Assembly (NCBI RefSeq): GCF_045037415.1
Contig: NZ_CP173438.1
Reading direction: 5' to 3' (one strand)
DNA: 64,000 nucleotides
DNA from: Escherichia coli
GTDB taxonomy: Bacteria > Pseudomonadota > Gammaproteobacteria > Enterobacterales > Enterobacteriaceae
Shown: positions 16,828-32,018 of the stretch, piece after piece
How the letters are laid out: each line of letters opens with the position of its first letter
Position numbering within the stretch: position 1 is the stretch's first letter
Program-made: the position numbers and the translations under genes
Notes under the pieces: generated by a model
Databases searched by the model: none
Seen by the model: the letters and a program-made list of their open reading frames with translations, nothing else
Told to the model about the DNA's origin: nothing

Positions 16828-16856
16828 AAAAGCCAACCTGCAGGTTGGCTTTTTTA
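16828..16856. terminator. Bidirectional terminator between fur and chiQ
   Basis: agccaacc-tgca-ggttggct followed by tttttt, A-run upstream. Confidence 0.6.
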
Positions 16857-20784: not shown

Positions 20785-21003
20785 CGTGGATTCCTCAAAG
20801 CGTAAACAACGTATAACGGCGTATGATCTTATAAGCGGGACAGGCTGACAACTGTTAGTTAGCGAAAAAATGGTTTTGCGTAAGATATTGGGGCGTTTTC
20901 TGCGCTACTGCCAGCAGATCCTCGCGCTGGAAACGTAAGGCCAAACGTCGCCAGCCTGACGCATTTATTAAATTTCCGGATGAGCTGGCCGCAGAGTCGT
21001 AGA

Positions 21004-21765
21004 TTAGTCGGCTATGATTAAACGCGTCGACAAGGACGCAAGCGTTCTACGCGTCTGCCCATCAAGCTGACTATCCGTAATAATCTCTGTCAGTTCATTA
21101 AGATGCGCGATATTAAACAGCGACCATGAACCGTATTTTGAGCTGTCAGCCAGGAGAATTTTGCGCGAAGCATGCGCGATAAGATCGCGTTTTAGTGCGG
21201 CTTTCTCTTCCGTGGGTGCTGTAATACCCTTTTCAAGATCCCAGCTGTTACAGCTTAAAAATGCCACGTCCGGCCAGGTATTTTGCAGCAATTTACGACC
21301 ATGTTCGCCAATGCAGGACTGGCTGGAGTCGTCAATACGTCCGCCGATAATCGTCACTTCAATTTGCTTGAATTCAGCCAAAAAAAGCGCGATATGCAGG
21401 TCGCTTGTGATCACGCGAAGCGGTAAATGTGTAATCTGCCGCGCAAGTTCAATCATTGTCGTACCGGCATCAAGGACGACGGAATCCCCCGCTTTGACCA
21501 TTGACGCCGCTGCGCTGGCGATGGCATGTTTTTCCGCCAGGCTGCGCTGCATTTTCTCATGGGTAGTCGGTTGGGTAGGAATAAACCGGTTGAGAGTCAC
21601 ACCGCCGTGTGTACGGCTGATAACACCCTGCTCATCGAGTTTTATCAGGTCTCGACGAATCGTAGCCGGCGACGCATTGGTTACCGCCACCAGCTCATCT
21701 ACGGTGACCAGATTATGGCTTTTCAGGTAATCCATGATCTGCTCTAACCGGTTATATCCCTTCAT
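21004..21765 (-). CDS. DeoR-family transcriptional regulator
   Basis: 253 aa; N-terminal HTH ([20 protein letters not shown]), DeoR-type C-terminal sensor domain; start 1 nt after upstream stop. Confidence 0.85.
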
Positions 21766-21766
21766 T

Positions 21767-22753
21767 TTATTCTCGCGAAATCTGCATTGCTAACTGGATG
21801 GAAACTGCCATGCTCTCAGACTTGGCTTTTCCTGTCCAGGCAATATCAAACGCGGTGCCGTGGTCGGCAGAAGTGCGAATAAATGGCAACCCGGCGGTGA
21901 TATTCACCCCATCATAAAATCCAAGCAGTTTTAAAGGGATATGCCCCTGATCGTGGTACATAGCCACTACCATATCGAATAGCCCTTCATGGCATTGCAT
22001 AAACACGGTATCTGGCGGGCACGGGCCAGTAACATCAATATCTTCGGCCTGCATTGCTTCAATCGCAGGCGCGATAATCTCGATTTCCTCAGTGCCGAAT
22101 AAACCATGTTCCCCTGCATGTGGATTTACACCCGCCACGGCAATACGCGGACGCTCAATACCAACACGTTTCAGGAAGTGGTTCGCAACTCGAATAACCG
22201 TTTTGACCCTTTCACCATTCAAAGTATCCAGGAATTTACGCAGTGAGATGTGAGTCGAAATATGGATAACCTTGAGCTTCTCGGTATAGAGCACCATCGC
22301 GTACTCTTTGCTGCCGGTAAGATGGGCCAGCAATTCCGTATGCCCCGGATAGTTATGCCCGCCAAGATGCAGCGCTTCTTTATTCAGCGGCGCAGTGGCT
22401 ATGGCTTTCACCTCGCCTGATAAGGCCAGAGCCGTTGCACGTTTGATACAGCGATACGCTAAATCGCCTGCCACAGCCTGTACCACTCCGGGTGTCAGCG
22501 CATCGGGGTTAGCCAGCGGCTCATCCATCACGTTAATCACGCCGGGAGCAAAATGGGCGTCGCACACCTTTTGAATGACGCGTAACTCTGCCTGCGGCGT
22601 GATATTCATCGCCATAATACGTCGCAGCGTGCGCACACAGCCCACCACCACCACCGGGGCACCAGCAAGCCCGGCTTCGCTCAGGGATTTAATAATGATC
22701 TCCGGGCCAATACCCGCCGGATCGCCCATCGTTACCGCAATAATATTATTCAC
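21767..22753 (-). CDS. PdxA-family NAD-dependent dehydrogenase (PdxA2-like)
   Basis: 328 aa; [15 protein letters not shown] and [17 protein letters not shown] motifs; GTG start with gaggag RBS inside the kinase 3' end. Confidence 0.85.
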
Positions 22754-23981
22754 TACGCTTCTCCTCGATAAAATTCAGAACCTGATGCAACGTGGTCTCA
22801 TCGCCAAACCCACCGGCTTTCGTCATCACCGAACGGGACCAGACGCCGCCCAGAAAGTGACCGTATGGAACGCATTGCGCCACCTTCCCCGTAATACGAA
22901 ATCCGGTCGCGCCTAACGCACTGGCTGTTGCCATTGCGACATCACCACCAGAGAGATAAAGCGCATCGGGCATTGCGCAAAGCAGAACTTGCCGGGTAAG
23001 TTCGCCAAGAAACCGGCAAATTTTTTCCCCAAGTGCAGCGCGACTCATCTGCCAACGCTGGCAAAGGGTGTCGATCTGATGCCTTGCTACAGAATCGTTA
23101 CAGGTGTGGACAATACAGTGGTCGCCTTTCTGCAAGGCCTGCACAATACGCGCGTCATAGTCACTGGCATTGCCTGCCAGAATGTGTTCAACATCGACGT
23201 ATATCTGTGTGATACGTGGGTGTGAATGAAGTGTGGCGATCTGCCGTTGAGCGATTTCGCTCATTGAACCAATAATGGCCAGCACGGTGGGTGGCGGCAT
23301 AATCGCGGAGCGCCGGGCAACGGCATCACAAATACCAGCGGAGCCGACCAGCAGCAGCGGTTGTTTAGCCTGCATCACAGCGGCAGCGATGCGATCCAGG
23401 TCGCTGTCCGTCTGCGCATCTATCACGCCAATCCACGGTTGCTCATAAGACAAATGGCTGAGCTGAGAAACCGTAACGGGCTGGCATGGAATGGCCGTCT
23501 GCAACCGGATGATGTCCGCAATTCGGGCGCTCAATACCGGGGTTTTCGGATCGCTAGCAAACTCGGTTTCCGTTATCCGCACACCGTTTACCCAACACTC
23601 ACCGGCCACTGTGGTCCTTCCCGCCTGAGGAAATGCGGGGGCAACCACTGCGCCCGTTATACCGCATGCCTTCATCAGGGCTTCAATTTCTGCGCCGATA
23701 TTGCCTCGCAGCGTGGAATCTATCTTTTTAATCACGAGCGGCGGGTTATTCGCCAGAGGGAGATGACTCATCAGCGAGGTTATTTTCATCGCCGCCAGCT
23801 TAGGATCCATCGCCCGACTGTCGCTGTTAATCACCCATACGCTGGCATCACCGCGATAAGGCATTTCAAAGGCCACATCAACTGTATGCCCCACCTGCGC
23901 CAGGCTTACCCCCGCGTCGTTGGCTCCCGTGAAATCATCGGCAACGATGAGAATGCTCGGCTTAGTGATTCCCTTTTCCAT
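22746..23981 (-). CDS. DUF1537 four-carbon acid-sugar kinase family protein (OtnK/DtnK-like)
   Basis: ORF starts at TTG 24023; best start is ATG 23981 (ggag RBS 5 nt upstream); ILIVADDFTGANDAG N-terminal motif. Confidence 0.8.
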   Translation of the reverse strand: MEKGITKPSILIVADDFTGANDAGVSLAQVGHTVDVAFEMPYRGDASVWVINSDSRAMDPKLAAMKITSLMSHLPLANNPPLVIKKIDSTLRGNIGAEIEALMKACGITGAVVAPAFPQAGRTTVAGECWVNGVRITETEFASDPKTPVLSARIADIIRLQTAIPCQPVTVSQLSHLSYEQPWIGVIDAQTDSDLDRIAAAVMQAKQPLLLVGSAGICDAVARRSAIMPPPTVLAIIGSMSEIAQRQIATLHSHPRITQIYVDVEHILAGNASDYDARIVQALQKGDHCIVHTCNDSVARHQIDTLCQRWQMSRAALGEKICRFLGELTRQVLLCAMPDALYLSGGDVAMATASALGATGFRITGKVAQCVPYGHFLGGVWSRSVMTKAGGFGDETTLHQVLNFIEEKRSE

Positions 23982-24019
23982 CATCACTCCAGGTTGTTTT
24001 ATGATAACAATGATTATAT

Positions 24020-24033
24020 TCAATCATGATTGA
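24020..24033. promoter_or_regulatory. Candidate operator palindrome 1 in divergent promoter
   Basis: Perfect 14-bp palindrome tcaatcatgattga upstream of the kinase operon. Confidence 0.4.
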
Positions 24034-24116
24034 TTAAATGTGAGCAAGCTCAAGTTATTAATCACTCGAATAAATTATAAAATTAGACCATGTTACGTAG
24101 GCTACGGCATTTTGAA

Positions 24117-24132
24117 TGATTGAATTCAATCA
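24117..24132. promoter_or_regulatory. Candidate operator palindrome 2 in divergent promoter
   Basis: Perfect 16-bp palindrome tgattgaattcaatca ending 19 bp before the ADH GTG start; shares the TGATTGA half-site with palindrome 1. Confidence 0.4.
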
Positions 24133-24150
24133 CCAGAAGAGAGGTTATTT

Positions 24151-25308
24151 GTGGTAATTATCAATAGCACGATACTGAGCGGCGCAGGCGCTATCCCTTC
24201 CCTGACGTCGCTCTTACCCGACATCAGAAAAATGCTGCTGGTCACTGACCGTAATATTGCGCAGCTCGACGGTGTGCAGCAGATTCGCGCCTTACTGGAA
24301 AAGCACTGCCCGCAGGTTAACGTTATCGATAATGTGCCCGCAGAGCCCACGCATCATGATGTGCGCCAGCTAATGGATGCCCTTGGCGATGCCTCTTTTG
24401 ATGTGGTGGTCGGGATCGGCGGTGGCAGCGTGTTGGATGTGGCGAAGCTGCTATCGGTGCTTTGCCATCCACAATCACCGGGGCTGGATGCGCTGCTTGC
24501 GGGTGAAAAACCGACTCAGCGGGTGCAATCATGGTTGATTCCTACAACCGCCGGAACCGGCTCAGAAGCCACGCCGAATGCGATTCTGGCAATCCCTGAG
24601 CAAAGCACGAAGGTGGGTATTATTTCCCAGGTGCTGTTACCAGACTATGTGGCGCTTTTCCCGGAACTGACCACCAGTATGCCCGCGCATATTGCGGCGT
24701 CCACGGGCATTGATGCTCTTTGCCACTTACTGGAGTGTTTTACCGCGACCGTGGCAAATCCGGTCAGCGATAACGCGGCGCTGACTGGGTTAAGTAAACT
24801 TTTCCGGCACATTCAACCCGCCGTGAACGATCCTCAGGATCTGCGCGCAAAACTGGAAATGCTGTGGGCGTCTTACTATGGCGGCGTAGCGATAACCCAT
24901 GCGGGCACGCATCTCGTTCATGCGCTCTCCTACCCGTTAGGTGGCAAATATCATCTGCCGCATGGCGTCGCGAATGCCATCTTGCTGGCGCCGTGCATGG
25001 CGTTTGTTCGCCCCTGGGCGGTCGAGAAATTTGCCCAGGTCTGGGATTGCATTCCCGATGCGGAAACCGCCCTGAGCGCGGAAGAAAAATCTCATGCCCT
25101 GGTGACCTGGTTACAGGCATTAGTCAATCAACTCAAGCTACCCAACAATCTCGCGGATCTCGGCGTACCGCCAGAGGATATTGCCTCTCTGAGCGAGGCG
25201 GCACTGAACGTGAAGCGCCTTATGAACAATGTGCCGTGCCAGCTTGATCTACAGGACGTACAGGCCATTTACCAAACACTGTTTCCGCAACATCAATTTA
25301 AGGAATAA
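24151..25308 (+). CDS. Iron-containing (group III) alcohol dehydrogenase family oxidoreductase
   Basis: 385 aa; GIGGGSVLDVAK and TTAGTGSE motifs; GTG start with RBS agagagg. Confidence 0.85.
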   Translation: MVIINSTILSGAGAIPSLTSLLPDIRKMLLVTDRNIAQLDGVQQIRALLEKHCPQVNVIDNVPAEPTHHDVRQLMDALGDASFDVVVGIGGGSVLDVAKLLSVLCHPQSPGLDALLAGEKPTQRVQSWLIPTTAGTGSEATPNAILAIPEQSTKVGIISQVLLPDYVALFPELTTSMPAHIAASTGIDALCHLLECFTATVANPVSDNAALTGLSKLFRHIQPAVNDPQDLRAKLEMLWASYYGGVAITHAGTHLVHALSYPLGGKYHLPHGVANAILLAPCMAFVRPWAVEKFAQVWDCIPDAETALSAEEKSHALVTWLQALVNQLKLPNNLADLGVPPEDIASLSEAALNVKRLMNNVPCQLDLQDVQAIYQTLFPQHQFKE

Positions 25309-25311
25309 ATC

Positions 25312-26199
25312 ATGCCGAAAACCATTGAAGGTGTATTAACCGCTATCGTCACCCCGTTTACCGCGACCGGCAGTCTGAATATCCCGGCGTTAAAAGTGCA
25401 GGTGAATCGTCAACTGGAAGCGGGTAACGCGATTTTTTGCGGCGGCACCAACGGCGAGTTTTTTGTGTTGAATGAACAGGAGAAGCTCAGCGTTACGCAA
25501 ACCTGCGTGGATGAAGTGGCTGGTCGTGCGCCAGTCGTGGCACACATTGGCGAGATCTCTACGCGCGAAACGATTCGTCTGGGTCAGCAGATTGAAAAAC
25601 TTGGCGTAGATGCCGTGTCGGTCATTGCCCCTTACTTCGTACCGCTGAAACAGGAAGAGTTGATTGCGCATTACAGCGCAATTGCCGACACACTGAGCAT
25701 TCCGATGTTTCTCTATAACATCCCGGCCCGCACTGGCAATACGATCCAGCCAGAAACCGCGCGTGCTCTGGCGTCGCACCCCAATATCATTGGGATTAAA
25801 GACAGCGACGGAAGCGACGAAAGCCTGAAGGGTTTTCTCGATGCGGTGCGCGACATTGACGGCTTTAATGTGCTCAACGGCCCGGATTCGCTGATCCATA
25901 AAGGGTTTGTCGAGGGATGTTCAGCCTGTATCTCTGGGCTCGCCAACGTCGCGCCGCGAGAAATCAATGCCATCTGGTCTCGCTTCCATGCCGGTGATAT
26001 TGAAGGGTCTTATGAAGCACAGGAGAGTGTAACGGGCCTGCGTACCGATCTTTATAAAGTAGCATTCTCCCCGGCTGCGGTGAAAAAAGCGTTGCAGCTT
26101 ATGGGGCATGATGTTGGTGATAGCCGCTACGCGGTTAATTTCACGCCTGAACAGATCAGCGAGATTCAACAAATTATTCGTCATTATAACATTAATTAA
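25312..26199 (+). CDS. DapA/NAL-family class I (Schiff-base) aldolase
   Basis: 295 aa; TPF...GTNGE and GIKDS (Schiff-base lysine) motifs; 3 nt after ADH stop. Confidence 0.85.
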   Translation: MPKTIEGVLTAIVTPFTATGSLNIPALKVQVNRQLEAGNAIFCGGTNGEFFVLNEQEKLSVTQTCVDEVAGRAPVVAHIGEISTRETIRLGQQIEKLGVDAVSVIAPYFVPLKQEELIAHYSAIADTLSIPMFLYNIPARTGNTIQPETARALASHPNIIGIKDSDGSDESLKGFLDAVRDIDGFNVLNGPDSLIHKGFVEGCSACISGLANVAPREINAIWSRFHAGDIEGSYEAQESVTGLRTDLYKVAFSPAAVKKALQLMGHDVGDSRYAVNFTPEQISEIQQIIRHYNIN

Positions 26200-26258
26200 A
26201 TTAACTCTATTATCCAGCCCGCTATAAAGTTTAGATAAAGAGAATAAAGGATTACCCC

Positions 26259-27017
26259 ATGTTTTTGTGGTTTATGCAGCCAGATATCTGGCTCACTTTA
26301 ATTACCCTCACCTTTCTGGAAATTATTCTTGGGGTGGATAATATTATTTTTCTTTCACTGGTGGTGGCAAAACTTCCGTTATCACAACAAAATATGGCGC
26401 GTAAACTGGGTTTAAGCTGCGCGATGATTATGCGGATATTATTGCTGATATCCATTGCGTGGCTTTCACATATTACCCAGCCGCTTTTTACCGTGCTGAC
26501 GCTGGAGATTTCGTTCCGCACGTTGATTCTGCTCGGGGGCGGGCTGTTCCTGATTTATAAAGCGATACAGGAGATACGCGAAGAGCTGTCGCCCGCGCAG
26601 GAAGACGAACATGGCAGCGGATCGCGGCAACTGTCGTTGTGCGGTGCCATTGTACAGATAATGCTGCTCGATATCGTGTTTAGCCTGGATTCGGTGATCA
26701 CCGCCGTCGGCCTTTCTCAGCATATATTTATCATGATTGCCGCCGTAATGATTGCCGTCGGTGTCATGATGTTTGCGGCGAAAACAATTGGTGATTTCGT
26801 TAACGCCACGCCGTCAATAAAAATACTGGCGTTAACCTTTTTATTGTTTGTCGGTGTATTGCTGGTTGCCGATAGTCTCAACATTCATATTGCCAAAGAG
26901 TATCTCTACTTCGCGATATTTTTCTCATTAAGTGTTGAGACACTCAATATTATCCGTGAAAGAAAAAATAAAAAAGTTTCGACATTGATCGAAACGCATG
27001 AATCGCACTCGCATTAA
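26259..27017 (+). CDS. TerC-family integral membrane protein
   Basis: 252 aa; paired TerC motifs ILGVDNIIF and DIVFSLDSV; visibly more AT-rich than neighbours. Confidence 0.8.
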   Translation: MFLWFMQPDIWLTLITLTFLEIILGVDNIIFLSLVVAKLPLSQQNMARKLGLSCAMIMRILLLISIAWLSHITQPLFTVLTLEISFRTLILLGGGLFLIYKAIQEIREELSPAQEDEHGSGSRQLSLCGAIVQIMLLDIVFSLDSVITAVGLSQHIFIMIAAVMIAVGVMMFAAKTIGDFVNATPSIKILALTFLLFVGVLLVADSLNIHIAKEYLYFAIFFSLSVETLNIIRERKNKKVSTLIETHESHSH

Positions 27018-27052
27018 TAAATCTATTACCAACTTTAAGATGGAGTCTAACT

Positions 27053-28222
27053 ATGTCTGTAGCCCTTATTCGTGACGGCGTCATCCGTCCATCCGAAAAC
27101 GATTCGCATGTGCTTACCGCCATGCTGCCCTCGTCCTGCCCGCAAAACCACGCGGCGAATATTCTGCCTTTGCCGGATGGCGCGTTAATGTGCGTCTGGT
27201 TTGCGGGAACGCAGGAAGGTATTGCCGATATTTCTGTCTGGGGATCGCGATTGCCCGCTGGCGGAATGCAGTGGAGCGATGCGGCCAAACTTTCCCACGA
27301 TGACACGCGTTCAGAGCAAAACCCGGTGCTGTTTCTCGCGCCGGATAACGTGCTGTGGCTCCTATGGACCGCACAAATATCCGGTAATCAGGACACCGCC
27401 ATCGTCCGCTACCGTAAGTCAGACGACCTCGGACAAACCTGGGGCGAGATTGCCACCCTGCTTGATAAACCCGGTACGTTCATTCGACAGCCAATCACGG
27501 TGCTTGATAACGGCAACTGGCTGCTGCCCGTCTTTTATTGCCGTACCCAACCCGGCGAAAAATGGGTCGGCAATGATGATATCAGCGCAGTGAAAATTTC
27601 CGCTGACGGTGGTCACTCCTGGCGCGATGTCGAGGTGCCGCAAAGTCTCGGCTGTGTTCATATGAATATCACAATGTTGCACGACGGTACGTTGGTTGCT
27701 CTCTTTCGCAGCCGTTGGGCAGACAACATCTATATCAGCCATTCAGTGGACAACGGCGAGAGTTGGTCGGTGCCGCAAGCAACCGAATTGCCCAACAACA
27801 ATTCGTCTATTCAGGTAACGACGCTTGCCAGCGGCGAACTGGCGCTGGTGTACAACGCGATGAGTGCGGCAGGCGCAGTAGAACGTCGCGCGTCGCTTTA
27901 TGACGAAATCGACGATGGCGACGACAGCCGCAAAGAACCGACAGCCGTCGGACGCTCCGCTTTCTGGGGTGCCCCACGCGCGCCGATGACGGTAGCGATT
28001 TCTGCCGATGGTGGGAAAAGCTGGTCGTGGCGGCGCAATCTCGATGAAGGCGACGGCTACTGCATGACCAACAATTCCCTGGAAAAGCTAAATCGTGAGT
28101 TCTCCTACCCCAGCATCAAACAAAGCCCGGACGGTACGCTACATATCGCTTACACCTGGTGGCGTCAGGCCATCAAGTACGTACGCATCTCCCCCGAGTG
28201 GGTTAAGGGGCAGGCATCATGA
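27053..28222 (+). CDS. BNR/Asp-box repeat protein, sialidase-fold beta-propeller, no signal peptide
   Basis: 389 aa; four Asp-boxes (SDDLGQTW, SADGGHSW, SVDNGESW, SADGGKSW); N-terminus lacks a signal peptide. Confidence 0.8.
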   Translation: MSVALIRDGVIRPSENDSHVLTAMLPSSCPQNHAANILPLPDGALMCVWFAGTQEGIADISVWGSRLPAGGMQWSDAAKLSHDDTRSEQNPVLFLAPDNVLWLLWTAQISGNQDTAIVRYRKSDDLGQTWGEIATLLDKPGTFIRQPITVLDNGNWLLPVFYCRTQPGEKWVGNDDISAVKISADGGHSWRDVEVPQSLGCVHMNITMLHDGTLVALFRSRWADNIYISHSVDNGESWSVPQATELPNNNSSIQVTTLASGELALVYNAMSAAGAVERRASLYDEIDDGDDSRKEPTAVGRSAFWGAPRAPMTVAISADGGKSWSWRRNLDEGDGYCMTNNSLEKLNREFSYPSIKQSPDGTLHIAYTWWRQAIKYVRISPEWVKGQAS

Positions 28223-28689
28223 TTATCGGTAATCTCAACCATTTGTCGCTGGCGGGGCTTCCTGCCTGGGTGAGAAATATTCTGCTGCGCCCGGAGTGTT
28301 CGTTATCGGCGTTATCCACCAGAGAGGACGGTCGCTGGCAACCTGAAGGATGTCGGTGGTTCTGCTCGCTGGGAACTTCAGACACGCAACCCGCCGAACT
28401 TCGCCATACGGAGTATCACCATCTATGGGCCGATATACAGGTGGTGATTACTGGTTGTGAGGGCATTAATGCGGGAACGCGGCCCATCGCTCGCGAAAAC
28501 GATGAAGAACGTAAGCCCGATCTGTTTATCGCCCCATCCCCTGAAAACAGTGTCGCCATCACCCTACACGCCGGTGATTTCGCCGTCTTTATGCCTGAGG
28601 AACCTCACCAGGCACTGTGCGCAATTGGCACGGCTACTTCAATACGCAAAGCGGTCTTTAAAGTACCGCGCGACATGCTGGAAGCCTAA
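28219..28689 (+). CDS. YhcH/YjgK/YiaL (DUF386) family protein, NanQ-like
   Basis: 156 aa; GDFAVFMPEEPH and KVPRDMLEA resemble the YhcH family as I recall it; ATGA overlap with the upstream stop. Confidence 0.8.
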   Translation: MIIGNLNHLSLAGLPAWVRNILLRPECSLSALSTREDGRWQPEGCRWFCSLGTSDTQPAELRHTEYHHLWADIQVVITGCEGINAGTRPIARENDEERKPDLFIAPSPENSVAITLHAGDFAVFMPEEPHQALCAIGTATSIRKAVFKVPRDMLEA

Positions 28690-28702
28690 AAGGAGAGAAA
28701 AA

Positions 28703-29983
28703 ATGACAATGGAAATGATCCTGGCATTAGGAATACTGGTCCTGATGATCGTGCTGATCATGTCGGACAAAATGCCTTTTGGCGCACCGCCACTGCTTGC
28801 GTGTTTATTGCTGGTTGTATCGGGACTTTCGACCGTTCAACAGGCTTTTGCCGGATTCGTCAATCCAAGCGTGGTGATGATTGCAGGGTTTATGGTGGTC
28901 ATGGCGGCGCTACAAAAAACCCGGCTTATCAGCAACGTTAAATCTGCGATGATAAGCCTGGTCAATAAAGGCAGTTACCGCAGCTATGGGCTGTTATTAG
29001 TCATTGTTATGCTGGGTGCCAGTCTTGCCGGCACCGGAGCGACCGGTTATTACGTGCTAATTCTGTCGCTGGTATCCACCATTCCGTACAGTAAAAAGCT
29101 ACCAACATCGAAATTAATGATGCCCCTGGGATTTGCCACCAACCACCCGCTTCTTCCTATCAATCTCGCGCTTCTCTTTGGCGTTACGGCGACCGTACTC
29201 GAAACCGCGGGGTTTCATCAGGCGATTTCGATGGGGCGCTTTGCGCTGGTGAATCTCATCATGTCAGCGGCTTTCCTCGCATGGAGTCTTATTGCCTACC
29301 GTTTTCTTCCGGATCATCCCATTGCGGATGCTTCCGAGGATGCGCTGGCGGCACGCGAGGAAACGTTTAACGCCCTTCCTGCCTGGAAAGAATATTGCAC
29401 TATTGCCGCATTCGCTGTCAGCGTTATCGGCATGATGCTAATGAACATTCTGGGAAATATCGCCTTCGTTATTCCGGGTCTTGCGGGTGCGTTTGTTCTG
29501 ATGATCGATGTACTGGACTTCAAAGAAGTTCGCGATCATATGGGGGCTCCGGTCATTTTAATGATGGCGGGGGTGATCGGTGTAGCTGATGCACTGGCGG
29601 GCACCGGCTTTACGGCGATGGTTGGCGATGCCGTTGCAGGTGTGCTCGGTTCTGGCGTCTCACCGTTTGTATTTATTGTCGCCTTTGCTTTGCTTACCAG
29701 TACCTGCGCCACCTTCACGGGTTCGAATATGGGGTCAGTATATATTTTTGCCCCCATCGCCATTGCCGCCTGTACTAGCCTTGGGCTTAACCCGACCGCT
29801 GCCGCGATTGCGGTGGTGATTTCTGGCTGGAATGGCGGCTATATGCCTATTGACGGAATGCCAGCCATGATCCTCGGAATGGGGAAATACAAACTTCCCG
29901 AATTCTGGGTGTTCTCTGTACCAATGTATCTCATCCGCATTCTGGCGCTTTGTGCAGGCGCTGTTTTTATCTTCCCAATGTAA
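28703..29983 (+). CDS. Polytopic permease, ion-transporter-superfamily-like (family unresolved)
   Basis: ORF 28457..29983 trimmed to ATG 28703 (aaggagag RBS); about 12 hydrophobic segments, 426 aa. Confidence 0.75.
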   Translation: MTMEMILALGILVLMIVLIMSDKMPFGAPPLLACLLLVVSGLSTVQQAFAGFVNPSVVMIAGFMVVMAALQKTRLISNVKSAMISLVNKGSYRSYGLLLVIVMLGASLAGTGATGYYVLILSLVSTIPYSKKLPTSKLMMPLGFATNHPLLPINLALLFGVTATVLETAGFHQAISMGRFALVNLIMSAAFLAWSLIAYRFLPDHPIADASEDALAAREETFNALPAWKEYCTIAAFAVSVIGMMLMNILGNIAFVIPGLAGAFVLMIDVLDFKEVRDHMGAPVILMMAGVIGVADALAGTGFTAMVGDAVAGVLGSGVSPFVFIVAFALLTSTCATFTGSNMGSVYIFAPIAIAACTSLGLNPTAAAIAVVISGWNGGYMPIDGMPAMILGMGKYKLPEFWVFSVPMYLIRILALCAGAVFIFPM

Positions 29984-29991
29984 TCTCAGAC

Positions 29992-30026
29992 AAAAAAAGC
30001 GGCAGAGAAGATCCCTGCCGCTTTTT
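29992..30026. terminator. Bidirectional terminator between island permease and nagE
   Basis: aaaaaaa-gcggcag-agaagatcc-ctgccgc-ttttt. Confidence 0.55.
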
Positions 30027-30033
30027 ATTGTTG

Positions 30034-30060
30034 GATGCGACGCTGCCGCGTCGCATCAGA
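30034..30060. repeat. REP-like palindrome
   Basis: gatgcgacgc-tgcc-gcgtcgcatc perfect inverted repeat resembling REP units. Confidence 0.4.
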
Positions 30061-30071
30061 CATAAAGCAGA

Positions 30072-32018
30072 TTACTTTTTGATTTCATACAGCGGTGTTT
30101 GACCCGCCACAACATGGCCCTGAGCTTTAATGATAAGGCCGCTGAAATCATCGATATTGCTGCAAACCACCGGGCTAATCATCGAACGGGCGTTAGCGTT
30201 CAGGTAATCCAGATCCATTTCCAGAATCGGTTGCCCTGCGCTTACCTGCGCGCCCTCTTCCACCAGACGTTTAAAGCCTTTACCTTCCAGCGCTACGGTG
30301 TCGATACCCATATGGACGACGATCTCCGCGCCTTTTTCGGTTTCCAGACAGAACGCGTGGTTGGTGTTGAAGATTTTCACGATTGTTCCTGCGGCTGGTG
30401 ATACGACGATTTTATCTGTCGGTTTCACCGCCACACCGTCACCCACCGCTTTGCTGGCGAATGCTTCGTCAGGAATCTGATCCAGTGCCACAACATCCCC
30501 GGTAATCGGCGATACCAGCTCCGCGATAGATACCGCGTTTGGTACAGCCTGCGGTTTTGCTACAGGAGCGGCAGTTGCCGGAGTTGCTTCAGCTGACGCA
30601 GCGGCTACCGGACCACGGGCAACGACTTTCTTCATCGCATCGCCGATGGATTCTGCTTTCGCGCCAACAATCACCTGAATAGTCTGTTTGTTCAGTTTTA
30701 CTACCCCAGAAGCACCCAGACGTTTACACATCGCATCGTTGACGCGAGCTGAGTCAACCACGGTAAGGCGCAGACGAGTAATACAGGCGTCAATGGCTTT
30801 CAGGTTGTCAGTACCGCCAACCGCAGCAATATAGTTGGTTGCCAGTTGATTGAGACCTTCTTCAGTATTGCTGTTAGCCTCTTCAGTAACGATCTCGTCT
30901 TCTTTATCTTCACGACCCGGCGTTTTCAGGTTGAACATGCGGATAACCAAACTGAACACCACGAAGTAGATAGCGAAGAAGACAACCCCCATCACCAGCA
31001 GCATCCAGACGTTCTGGCTGGCGGCCGGCAGGTTATACATCAACGCGTAGTCGATAGCCCCCGCAGAGAAAGAGAAGCCGGCATGGATACCCAGCAACGT
31101 TGCCACAAACAGGCTGATACCGGTCAGCAGTGCGTGCAGGAGGTACAGCAGCGGTGCAAGGAACATGAACAGGAATTCCAGCGGCTCAGTCACACCGGTC
31201 AGGAACGCAGTAACAGCAACAGAAAGCAGCATCCCGCCAACCATCGGACGACGCTCTTTCGGTGCTGCGAAGTACATCGCCAGCGCCGCACCCGGCAGGC
31301 CGAACATCATAATCGGGAAGAAGCCGGACATGAACATCCCCGCGGTGCCGTCACCGGCATAGAAGCGGTTGATATCACCGTGGAAAACCGTTCCCGCCGC
31401 GTTGGTGAATTCACCAATCTGGAACCAGGCGATGGTGTTCAGCACCTGATGCAGACCGGTTGGGATCAGCAGACGGTTGATGAAACCAAAGATACCGGAA
31501 CCCAGCGCGCCCGCAGAAACGATCCACTCGCCGCCTGCATGGATAGCGTGCTGTACCGGTGGCCAGACGTAACCAAAAATGGCCGCCAGCACCAGACAGA
31601 AGAAGCCGGTGGCTATCGGCACAAAGCGTTTGCCGCCGAAGAAGCTCAGGAAGTCCGGCAGTTTAATATCGGACCAACGGTTATAGGCTGCGCCACCAAC
31701 CAGACCGGTAATGATACCCGCCAGTACACCCATGTTAATTTCTGGGTTGATGGTCACCATCGCTTTGGTTAACACAAAGTAACCTACCGCACCCGCCAGT
31801 GCCGCCGCACCTGCGCTGTCTTTCGACCAGCTGGATGCCACGCCGATGGCGAATATTAATGCGAGGTTATCAAAAATCGCACCGCCCGCCTGGGCAATAA
31901 ACGCAACGTTAAGTAAATCTGGCTGACCGAATCGCAGCAACAGCGCCGCCACCGGCAGCACCGCGATAGGGAGCTGTAACGCCCTACCGAGTCGCTGGAA
32001 AAAACCTAAAATATTCAT
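30072..32018 (-). CDS. nagE: PTS N-acetylglucosamine-specific EIICBA
   Basis: 648 aa; EIIC membrane domain followed by EIIB and EIIA domains. Confidence 0.95.
   Translation of the reverse strand: MNILGFFQRLGRALQLPIAVLPVAALLLRFGQPDLLNVAFIAQAGGAIFDNLALIFAIGVASSWSKDSAGAAALAGAVGYFVLTKAMVTINPEINMGVLAGIITGLVGGAAYNRWSDIKLPDFLSFFGGKRFVPIATGFFCLVLAAIFGYVWPPVQHAIHAGGEWIVSAGALGSGIFGFINRLLIPTGLHQVLNTIAWFQIGEFTNAAGTVFHGDINRFYAGDGTAGMFMSGFFPIMMFGLPGAALAMYFAAPKERRPMVGGMLLSVAVTAFLTGVTEPLEFLFMFLAPLLYLLHALLTGISLFVATLLGIHAGFSFSAGAIDYALMYNLPAASQNVWMLLVMGVVFFAIYFVVFSLVIRMFNLKTPGREDKEDEIVTEEANSNTEEGLNQLATNYIAAVGGTDNLKAIDACITRLRLTVVDSARVNDAMCKRLGASGVVKLNKQTIQVIVGAKAESIGDAMKKVVARGPVAAASAEATPATAAPVAKPQAVPNAVSIAELVSPITGDVVALDQIPDEAFASKAVGDGVAVKPTDKIVVSPAAGTIVKIFNTNHAFCLETEKGAEIVVHMGIDTVALEGKGFKRLVEEGAQVSAGQPILEMDLDYLNANARSMISPVVCSNIDDFSGLIIKAQGHVVAGQTPLYEIKK

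Follow-up and report, generated by a model that had tools for sequence, protein, structure and literature searches.

Escherichia coli DeoR represses via looping, with distant single operators cooperating (PMC8053113). YgbI, which belongs to the same family, is a repressor of a DUF1537-kinase operon and occupies the divergent ygbI-ygbJ region across its promoter, as was demonstrated by chromatin immunoprecipitation with exonuclease digestion (ChIP-exo) and by deletion (PMC8464067). In Brucella, the DeoR-family protein VdtR occupies several sites at the ltnD promoter and represses the erythronate/L-threonate cluster; it was not released in vitro by free acid sugars, and therefore a downstream intermediate was indicated as the effector (PMC10580937). 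In the present study, we analysed the region between two divergent operons of an accessory island in E. coli, within a stretch of 64,000 nucleotides (RefSeq assembly GCF_045037415.1, contig NZ_CP173438.1) which is called the window here and to which all plain coordinates refer. The leftward operon begins with dtnK, encoding D-threonate kinase, and ends with the gene of a DeoR/GlpR-family regulator; the rightward operon begins with an Fe-ADH gene (adh). Two 16-bp sites in this region, OL (TGATTATATTCAATCA, 24011-24026) and OR (TGATTGAATTCAATCA, 24117-24132), are probably operators of the adjacent regulator, in a bidirectional control region that would combine this repressor with CRP. As far as the comparison of sequences supports it, this is an ordinary local system of repressor and operators that had not been described before.

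The deo system resembles this locus in several respects. The regulator of the island carries the same two Pfam domains as DeoR and, as is predicted for the island, the deoCABD operon has several single operators (deoO1, deoO2 and OE). The operators deoO1 (TGTTAGAATTCTAACA) and deoO2 (TGTTAGAATACTAACA) were checked in K-12, where they lie 599 bp apart upstream of deoC. Between deoO1 and OR, 12 of the 16 positions are identical, and the 16-bp layout TG-N3-GAATTC-N3-CA is common to deoO1, deoO2 and OR. However, the arm of OR differs at three positions (ATT against TTA), as would be expected for a different specificity. In deo, the operators are ~600 and ~300 bp apart and the promoters are in tandem, whereas here the distance is ~106 bp and the promoters are divergent. 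The function is also different, since deo is concerned with nucleoside catabolism and the island with acid-sugar catabolism.

YgbI is likewise a local repressor of the DeoR family, and the K-12 cluster under its control, ygbJKLMN, is a paralogous four-carbon acid-sugar kinase cluster. There, ygbI is divergently transcribed, whereas in the island the regulator gene stands last in the kinase operon. In addition, the ygbI-ygbJ region of K-12 contains a different long inverted repeat (TTCACATAAAATAACA/TGTTAATTTATGTGAA, 2813-2849 of locus L059), and the OL/OR motif was not found in it. This repeat is a candidate YgbI operator and overlaps a CRP-like sequence (TGTGAATCAGATCAC, 2845-2860 of the same locus). 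VdtR differs from the island system in that it belongs to an alphaproteobacterium and to an L-threonate/D-erythronate pathway, and the likeness concerns the protein family, the kind of cluster and the several sites in one promoter region.

Two further systems are comparable in their geometry. In gal, the GalR operators OE and OI are ~110 bp apart around a CRP-dependent promoter region, one of them upstream and the other transcribed, and repression takes place through a small loop. GalR belongs to the LacI family and depends on HU. Unlike gal, the island has one operator that directly overlaps a predicted -10 hexamer, and its control region drives two divergent operons. In malX-malI, one CRP site lies ~41-43 bp upstream of two divergent starts and the repressor operator lies over one of the promoters; MalI, however, is a LacI-type repressor, and both its family and its operators are unlike those of the island.

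Conserved sites between dtnK and adh

According to the RefSeq gene starts, the intergenic region spans 23982-24150 and has a length of 169 bp with 31% GC. In an earlier note on this DNA, the length had been given as 127 bp from the longest open reading frame, with a TTG start at 24023; this value had to be corrected because the RefSeq start of dtnK is the ATG at 23981. The CAT at 23979-23981, which is this start read on the minus strand, is conserved in the alignment of orthologous regions. The same note had reported two perfect palindromes, TCAATCATGATTGA at 24020-24033 and TGATTGAATTCAATCA at 24117-24132. The two were confirmed as described: each is identical to its reverse complement, they have the arm TGATTGA in common, and the left one lies ~40 bp from the kinase start and the right one 19 bp from the GTG start of adh. 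Further copies resembling the half-site also exist, as had been noted (TGATTAT at 24011, TGATTAA at 24031 and TTAATCA at 24058), and among these TGATTAT is the important one, since it forms the start of the conserved left 16-mer.

The half-site TGATTGA occurs 20 times in the window against an expectation of 9.8 +/- 2.7 per 64 kb, and four of the copies sit within 113 bp. The window has 7 perfect palindromes of at least 14 bp where ~5 are expected, which is close to chance, so that a single one is not rare, and on this ground the palindromes could be taken as accidents of an AT-rich spacer with no function. In simulation, however, two such palindromes in one 169-bp spacer of 31% GC had a P of ~4e-4, with the shared arm not yet counted, and the idea is contradicted by the conservation of OL and OR across genera in which DtnK is ~50% identical. 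A chance origin can hardly be credited. The other perfect palindromes of the window include AGCCAGATATCTGGCT (26278-26293) at the start of the TerC gene, TTGGTGAATTCACCAA (31402-31417) within nagE, and, in the chiQ-fur interval, a 26-bp palindrome, AAAAGCCAACCTGCAGGTTGGCTTTT (16828-16853), with the look of a bidirectional terminator.

For the comparison between species, contigs were searched with the regulator as query. This search gave 53 loci, from which 49 orthologous intergenic regions, belonging to Enterobacterales and one Vibrio, were compared after alignment by MAFFT. The gene order, in which adh-dhdps and dtnK-pdxA2-deoR (deoR being the regulator gene) diverge from a common intergenic region, is kept in ~48 species with an intergenic length of 157-223 bp. 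The genera with this arrangement include Enterobacter, Klebsiella, Citrobacter, Kosakonia, Leclercia, Phytobacter, Erwinia, Pantoea and Mangrovibacter, and it is also found in Vibrio litoralis. Because DtnK is only ~50% identical across the compared species, neutral sites are saturated. In the alignment, the flanks have a column conservation of 30-60%, and the conserved blocks reach at least 90% with sharp edges. The columns conserved to at least 90% are 24011-24027, 24030-24036, 24038-24048, 24050-24053 and 24071-24080, together with most positions of OR (24117-24119, 24123, 24126 and 24128-24132).

OL, the predicted primary operator, is an imperfect palindrome of 16 bp, which was found by searching for the right palindrome with up to three mismatches and is two mismatches away from OR. 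It is exact in 46 of the 49 regions, and no column in it falls below 90% conservation; in Vibrio it reads TGATTAAACTTAATCA, a nearly perfect palindrome. OR, the predicted second operator, is a perfect 16-bp palindrome located 18 nt before the GTG of adh, and a 16-mer of its type, TGA[T/G][T/C][G/A]A..T[C/T]AATCA, is present in 47 regions. From these sites, the operator consensus is most likely TGAT(T/G)RA-WW-TYAATCA. OL and OR are thus palindromic operator candidates placed in the promoter region of an adjacent catabolic operon. A literature search with three operator strings gave no relevant match (an unrelated chloroplast paper only), and no paper was found in a search for D-threonate kinase together with DeoR.

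A position weight matrix of the operators was built from the sites and scanned on the window and on ~630 kb of related loci. In the window, only OR (27.5 bits) and OL (23.7 bits) are strong, and the next best score is 13.9 bits. Over all of the scanned DNA, no strong copy was found outside the control region except look-alikes constrained by coding. Two intragenic 16-mers of this kind were rejected as probable coding coincidences: TGAGCGATTTCGCTCA at 23248-23263 in dtnK, which has perfect 7-bp arms and encodes SMSEIAQ, and a TGATTAAACTCGATCA-type 16-mer at 21632-21647 in deoR, over the codons for LIKLDQ. They lie over the same codons in many species and are regarded as coincidences because the synonymous positions vary freely. 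Next to OL, the columns of the half-site TTGATTA (24030-24036, plus strand) are also conserved to at least 90%. A weak second operator, OL2 (24031-24046), may exist 20 bp from OL, with this half-site as its left arm; the 16-mer at this place, TGATTAAATGTGAGCA, scored 12.5 bits with the operator matrix.

The left palindrome does not share this conservation. It had been proposed in the earlier note that the two perfect palindromes are operators of a repressor which reads the TGATTGA half-site both everted (24020-24033) and inverted (24117-24132). The perfection of both palindromes, their common 7-mer arm and the improbability of two in 169 bp by chance are in favour of this view. However, a perfect left 14-mer exists in only 14 of the 49 regions, and nowhere in the block is conservation lower than at its centre. 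The three nucleotides following OL vary (TGA, CAT, CAA, TAA or CGT), and the conserved TGATTA at 24031-24036 is shifted by 4 bp from the right arm of the left palindrome. Escherichia sp. MOD1-EC7003, the closest relative, has 11 substitutions in the 193 bp compared; two of these, at 24027 and 24028, destroy the left palindrome, whereas OL, OR and the TTGATTA half-site are unchanged and the CRP-like box described below differs only at 24049, a variable spacer position. Furthermore, recognition of one half-site in both arrangements would be unexpected for a dimeric HTH protein, and the overlapping OR-type 16-mer at 24011-24026 accounts better for the conservation. Reading of the same half-site in two arrangements is thus very unlikely. 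Since the left 14-mer is seldom perfect and its centre is variable, it was rejected as a conserved unit; judged from the alignment, it is a junction artefact, in which the right arm of OL, serving as the left arm of the palindrome, meets the variable spacer and the start of the next half-site. The wider proposal, by which the adjacent DeoR-family regulator controls both operons from this region, is supported by comparison as far as conserved and suitably placed operator-like sites are concerned, and is not supported for the left palindrome as drawn.

The offset from OL to OR is 103-106 bp, or 9.8-10.1 helical turns, in 47 of the 49 regions, and the sequence between the elements varies freely. 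Neighbouring distances vary by more than 20 bp, the distance from OR to adh being 16-38 bp. An offset of integral helical turns is the phased spacing of a looping repressor, and looping itself is a prediction. Because OL and OR are ~10 helical turns apart, an oligomeric repressor could bridge the two sites, looping out both promoters.

OR also lies in the predicted leader of the adh mRNA, 18 nt before the GTG, where a 6-bp hairpin is possible, and it could act as RNA, with a hairpin in the 5' untranslated region influencing translation or stability of this mRNA. The predicted leader, however, folds no better than shuffles (z = 0.11), and no Rfam match was found in 20800-30100. In 19 of the 49 species, the left arm is TGAGCGA and still faces an unchanged right arm, TCAATCA, so the pairing is lost without compensation. 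These results make an RNA element extremely improbable, and the reading of OR as a DNA operator is preferred.

Predicted promoters and the CRP-like box

On the dtnK strand, OL reads TGATTGAATATAATCA and holds the hexamer TATAAT (24018 to 24013). This is the predicted -10 element of the dtnK-pdxA2-deoR operon (24013-24018, minus strand); it gives an inferred start at ~24006 and would place OL at ~-5 to -20 of the dtnK promoter. The TATAAT is invariant because OL is invariant. For the adh operon, the predicted -10 element is TATAAA (24076-24081, plus strand) in the block TAAATTATAA, which is at least 90% conserved, with a putative start at ~24088 that would place OR at ~+30 to +45. The spacing of the TATAAA block to the CRP-like box is fixed in 47 of the 49 regions. 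A consensus scan of 23900-24250 for terminators found nothing.

The CRP-like box, AAATGTGAGCAAGCTCAAGTTA, occupies 24036-24057 with the core TGTGA at 24039-24043 and TCAAG at 24050-24054, and its centre is at 24046.5. Its TGTGA is perfect, and 16 of its 22 positions agree with the CRP consensus of 22 bp; with the lac CRP site, as read from K-12, 14 of 22 agree. The box is conserved across the aligned Enterobacterales, and its spacings are invariant, with 28 bp from the OL start to TGTGA and 37 bp from TGTGA to TATAA. The centre is 28.5 and 29.5 bp away from the two -10 hexamers, which is a symmetric placement for divergent promoters, and the predicted adh start at ~24088 would put the box at -41.5. 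With this geometry, one CRP dimer near -41 would serve both divergent class-II-type promoters. The missing -35 elements fit a dependence on an activator, the promoters being predicted only.

From these elements, a mode of control can be proposed. The repressor bound to OL would cover the -10 TATAAT of the dtnK-pdxA2-deoR promoter and block RNA polymerase, and OR would be its site in the early transcribed part of the adh operon. The weaker adjoining site or half-site, TTGATTA, would probably give extra cooperative contacts. CRP at its site centred on 24046.5 would have the class II activation geometry for both of the divergent promoters. For induction, a pathway intermediate would bind the DeoRC domain; by analogy with the family, it may be a phosphorylated compound, such as 4-phospho-D-threonate. 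Since deoR is the last gene of the dtnK operon, whose predicted -10 element is overlapped by OL, the regulator gene is probably autoregulated.

The adjacent regulator as the candidate binding protein

The candidate repressor is encoded at 21004-21765 on the minus strand (Pfam, RefSeq). It contains an HTH_DeoR domain (PF08220) at residues 6-59 (E 6e-19) and a DeoRC domain (PF00455) at residues 77-232 (E 3e-47), and this is the two-domain structure of the DeoR/GlpR family, with HTH_DeoR at the N-terminus and DeoRC at the C-terminus. The protein remained under the cut-off of every named NCBIfam equivalog, with the best scores for AgaR, GlpR and YgbI. Orthology with DeoR was rejected (83 bits against a cut-off of 244 bits, 24% identity), as was orthology with YgbI (167.7 bits against a cut-off of 400 bits, 33% identity and a different inverted repeat). 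The orthologues of the regulator are 61-83% identical over full-length alignments. Their recognition-helix region is invariant in the aligned enterobacterial and Erwinia proteins and near-invariant in those of Vibrio and Actinobacillus, and the helix differs from that of DeoR (SEMTIRRDLN) and of YgbI (SHMTIRRDLQ). From these comparisons, we infer that the adjacent regulator is the protein most likely to bind OL and OR.

Actinobacillus porcinus (locus L053) provides the best independent test that was obtained, as the motif follows the regulator into a rearranged operon. The A. porcinus regulator is 66% identical (tblastn). Its operon contains a kinase fragment, a pdxA-like gene, a KdgT-like gene, a kinase gene, an unknown gene and deoR, with neither adh nor dhdps, and the divergent neighbour is a glutathione S-transferase (GST) gene. 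The operon is headed by the palindrome TGATTAAAAATAATCA, followed by TTGATTA and then by the near-consensus CRP box TGTGACGAAGATCACG, and the tandem operator pair, 18 bp apart, scored 21.1 and 14.5 bits. The first open reading frame past the operator (1143-1388 of L053) is an 81-codon N-terminal fragment of a DUF1537 kinase and may be a truncated duplicate.

Several observations weigh against the proposed system. All loci were retrieved via the regulator, and the co-occurrence of motif and regulator is therefore partly circular. In addition, on a plasmid of Pantoea ananatis PA13 (L061), OL is intact and no deoR homologue lies within 6 kb. Both points would suit the view that the conserved 16-mers are read by some transcription factor distinct from the adjacent DeoR-family protein. 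No clean control, that is a dtnK/pdxA2 cluster with another regulator, was obtained, as a search for PdxA2 homologues gave close orthologues only, and those plasmid hits from tblastn that were looked at (Klebsiella H19, Pantoea H29) carry the same module. However, the architecture of the sites is that of DeoR operators, the motif accompanies the regulator in Actinobacillus, and outside the control region the window and ~630 kb hold no strong copy except coding look-alikes. By inspection, the sites also misfit the consensus sequences of FNR, Fur, Cra, the LacI family and NanR. Two partial resemblances in E. coli, of OR to an FNR site (TTGAA-N4-ATCAC) and of 24003-24021 to a Fur box (13/19), were rejected, as they are not conserved in other species. 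The action of another factor at these sites is thus considered unlikely. On the PA13 plasmid (5536-6000 and 6988-7731 of L061), the same adh-dhdps-transporter-sialidase-YhcH operon is found, with dtnK cut to its last 67 codons and OR degraded.

Other difficulties concern the promoters, the CRP-like box and the loop. The consensus scan of 23900-24250 found no sigma-70 promoter, and no -35 element is recognisable in either direction; because of this, the -10 elements were assigned from conservation and geometry only. With regard to the loop, the offset in Vibrio is 92 bp and an OR-like distal site is missing in A. porcinus, so that looping, if real, is not universal. In the box, the GCAAG of the 6-bp centre is invariant, which is not required by CRP and not explained by CRP alone, and the K. 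pneumoniae box (L060) reads TATGA in place of TGTGA. These two features, together with the 12.5 bits of TGATTAAATGTGAGCA and the second tandem site of A. porcinus, are in favour of the central invariant block (24031-24054) being a third repressor operator, instead of or besides a CRP site, and such an operator would be compatible with the repressor-plus-CRP model. On the other side, a CRP site is favoured by the perfect TGTGA, by the 16 of 22 consensus positions and by the closeness to the lac CRP site. The A. porcinus box stands apart from the tandem operator and is closer to the CRP consensus. Furthermore, both promoters are without a -35 element, as in activator-dependent promoters, and the box is placed symmetrically between them (28.5 and 29.5 bp). 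A third operator is thus kept as a tentative possibility, the CRP site remains the preferred reading of the block, and the repressor may also contact it. The K. pneumoniae record (CP125156.1) is a 5.37-Mb 'plasmid' which is evidently a chromosome, and its adh was recovered in two tblastn pieces and is possibly frameshifted.

The island and its possible pathway

In the leftward operon, dtnK (22746-23981, minus strand) was identified by RefSeq and by an NCBIfam equivalog score of 531 bits against a cut-off of 450, and pdxA2, for D-threonate 4-phosphate dehydrogenase (21767-22753, minus strand), by RefSeq and a score of 679 bits against a cut-off of 583. Neighbouring genes of this operon overlap or abut. 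The rightward operon (24151-29983, plus strand) encodes Fe-ADH, a DHDPS-family protein, a TerC-family protein, a sialidase-family protein, a YhcH-family protein and an SLC13/DASS permease. The gene of the TerC-family membrane protein (26259-27017) stands within this sugar-acid operon, 59 bp past the preceding gene, and an Rfam scan by E-value found no yybP-ykoY-type riboswitch at it.

The island lies in the glnS-nagE interval and is accessory in E. coli, being present in 1047 of 5426 complete genomes, chromosomal and single-copy in every case. The island segment of a metagenome-assembled genome labelled Citrobacter sp. HRGM_Genome_0066 (L002) encodes proteins 99-100% identical to those of the window, with an identical intergenic region, which suggests a mis-binned E. 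coli contig or a very recent transfer. The next closest island is that of Pseudocitrobacter vendiensis (L047). In comparisons of extraintestinal pathogenic E. coli (ExPEC), the same island appears as 'GR 6, nagE..glnS' and is uncharacterised there (PMC12928451). Apart from this description, no study was found on the regulation of the island or on the role of the rightward operon.

The gene content and stereochemistry suggest a route for which the substrate would be a pectin constituent. Pectin rhamnogalacturonan II contains 3-deoxy-D-lyxo-heptulosaric acid (DHA), a 7-carbon ulosaric diacid. In such a route, DHA or a glycoside of it would be imported by the SLC13/DASS permease in E. coli; at the loci of K. 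pneumoniae (L060) and Pantoea ananatis (L061), a transporter of the SSS family would take this part. The sialidase-family and YhcH proteins would process the imported compound. The DHDPS-family aldolase would then yield pyruvate and a four-carbon aldehyde-acid, Fe-ADH would reduce the latter to D-threonate, and DtnK and PdxA2 would convert this to dihydroxyacetone phosphate. A check by Fischer projection showed that the lyxo configuration yields a D-threo product. The sialidase-family protein has no sequence relative in the PDB, the YhcH protein is NanQ-like, and a literature search found no paper connecting DHA with this gene set. The whole proposal, namely that the island degrades DHA via D-threonate by an undescribed route and that the repressor senses 4-phospho-D-threonate and forms a ~106-bp loop around the shared CRP site, is speculative and rather doubtful at present.

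The operator consensus and the promoter map obtained here would be of use for the design of reporters, for finding the inducer and hence the true substrate of the pathway, and for finding further members of the regulon. The core module of the island occurs in roughly 50 species of Enterobacterales, and about one in five complete E. coli genomes, ExPEC lineages among them, has the island itself. The proposed mechanism, in which a local repressor is combined with CRP in textbook fashion, would be no surprise to specialists, and it may be useful for the annotation of this island and for the identification of its inducer.

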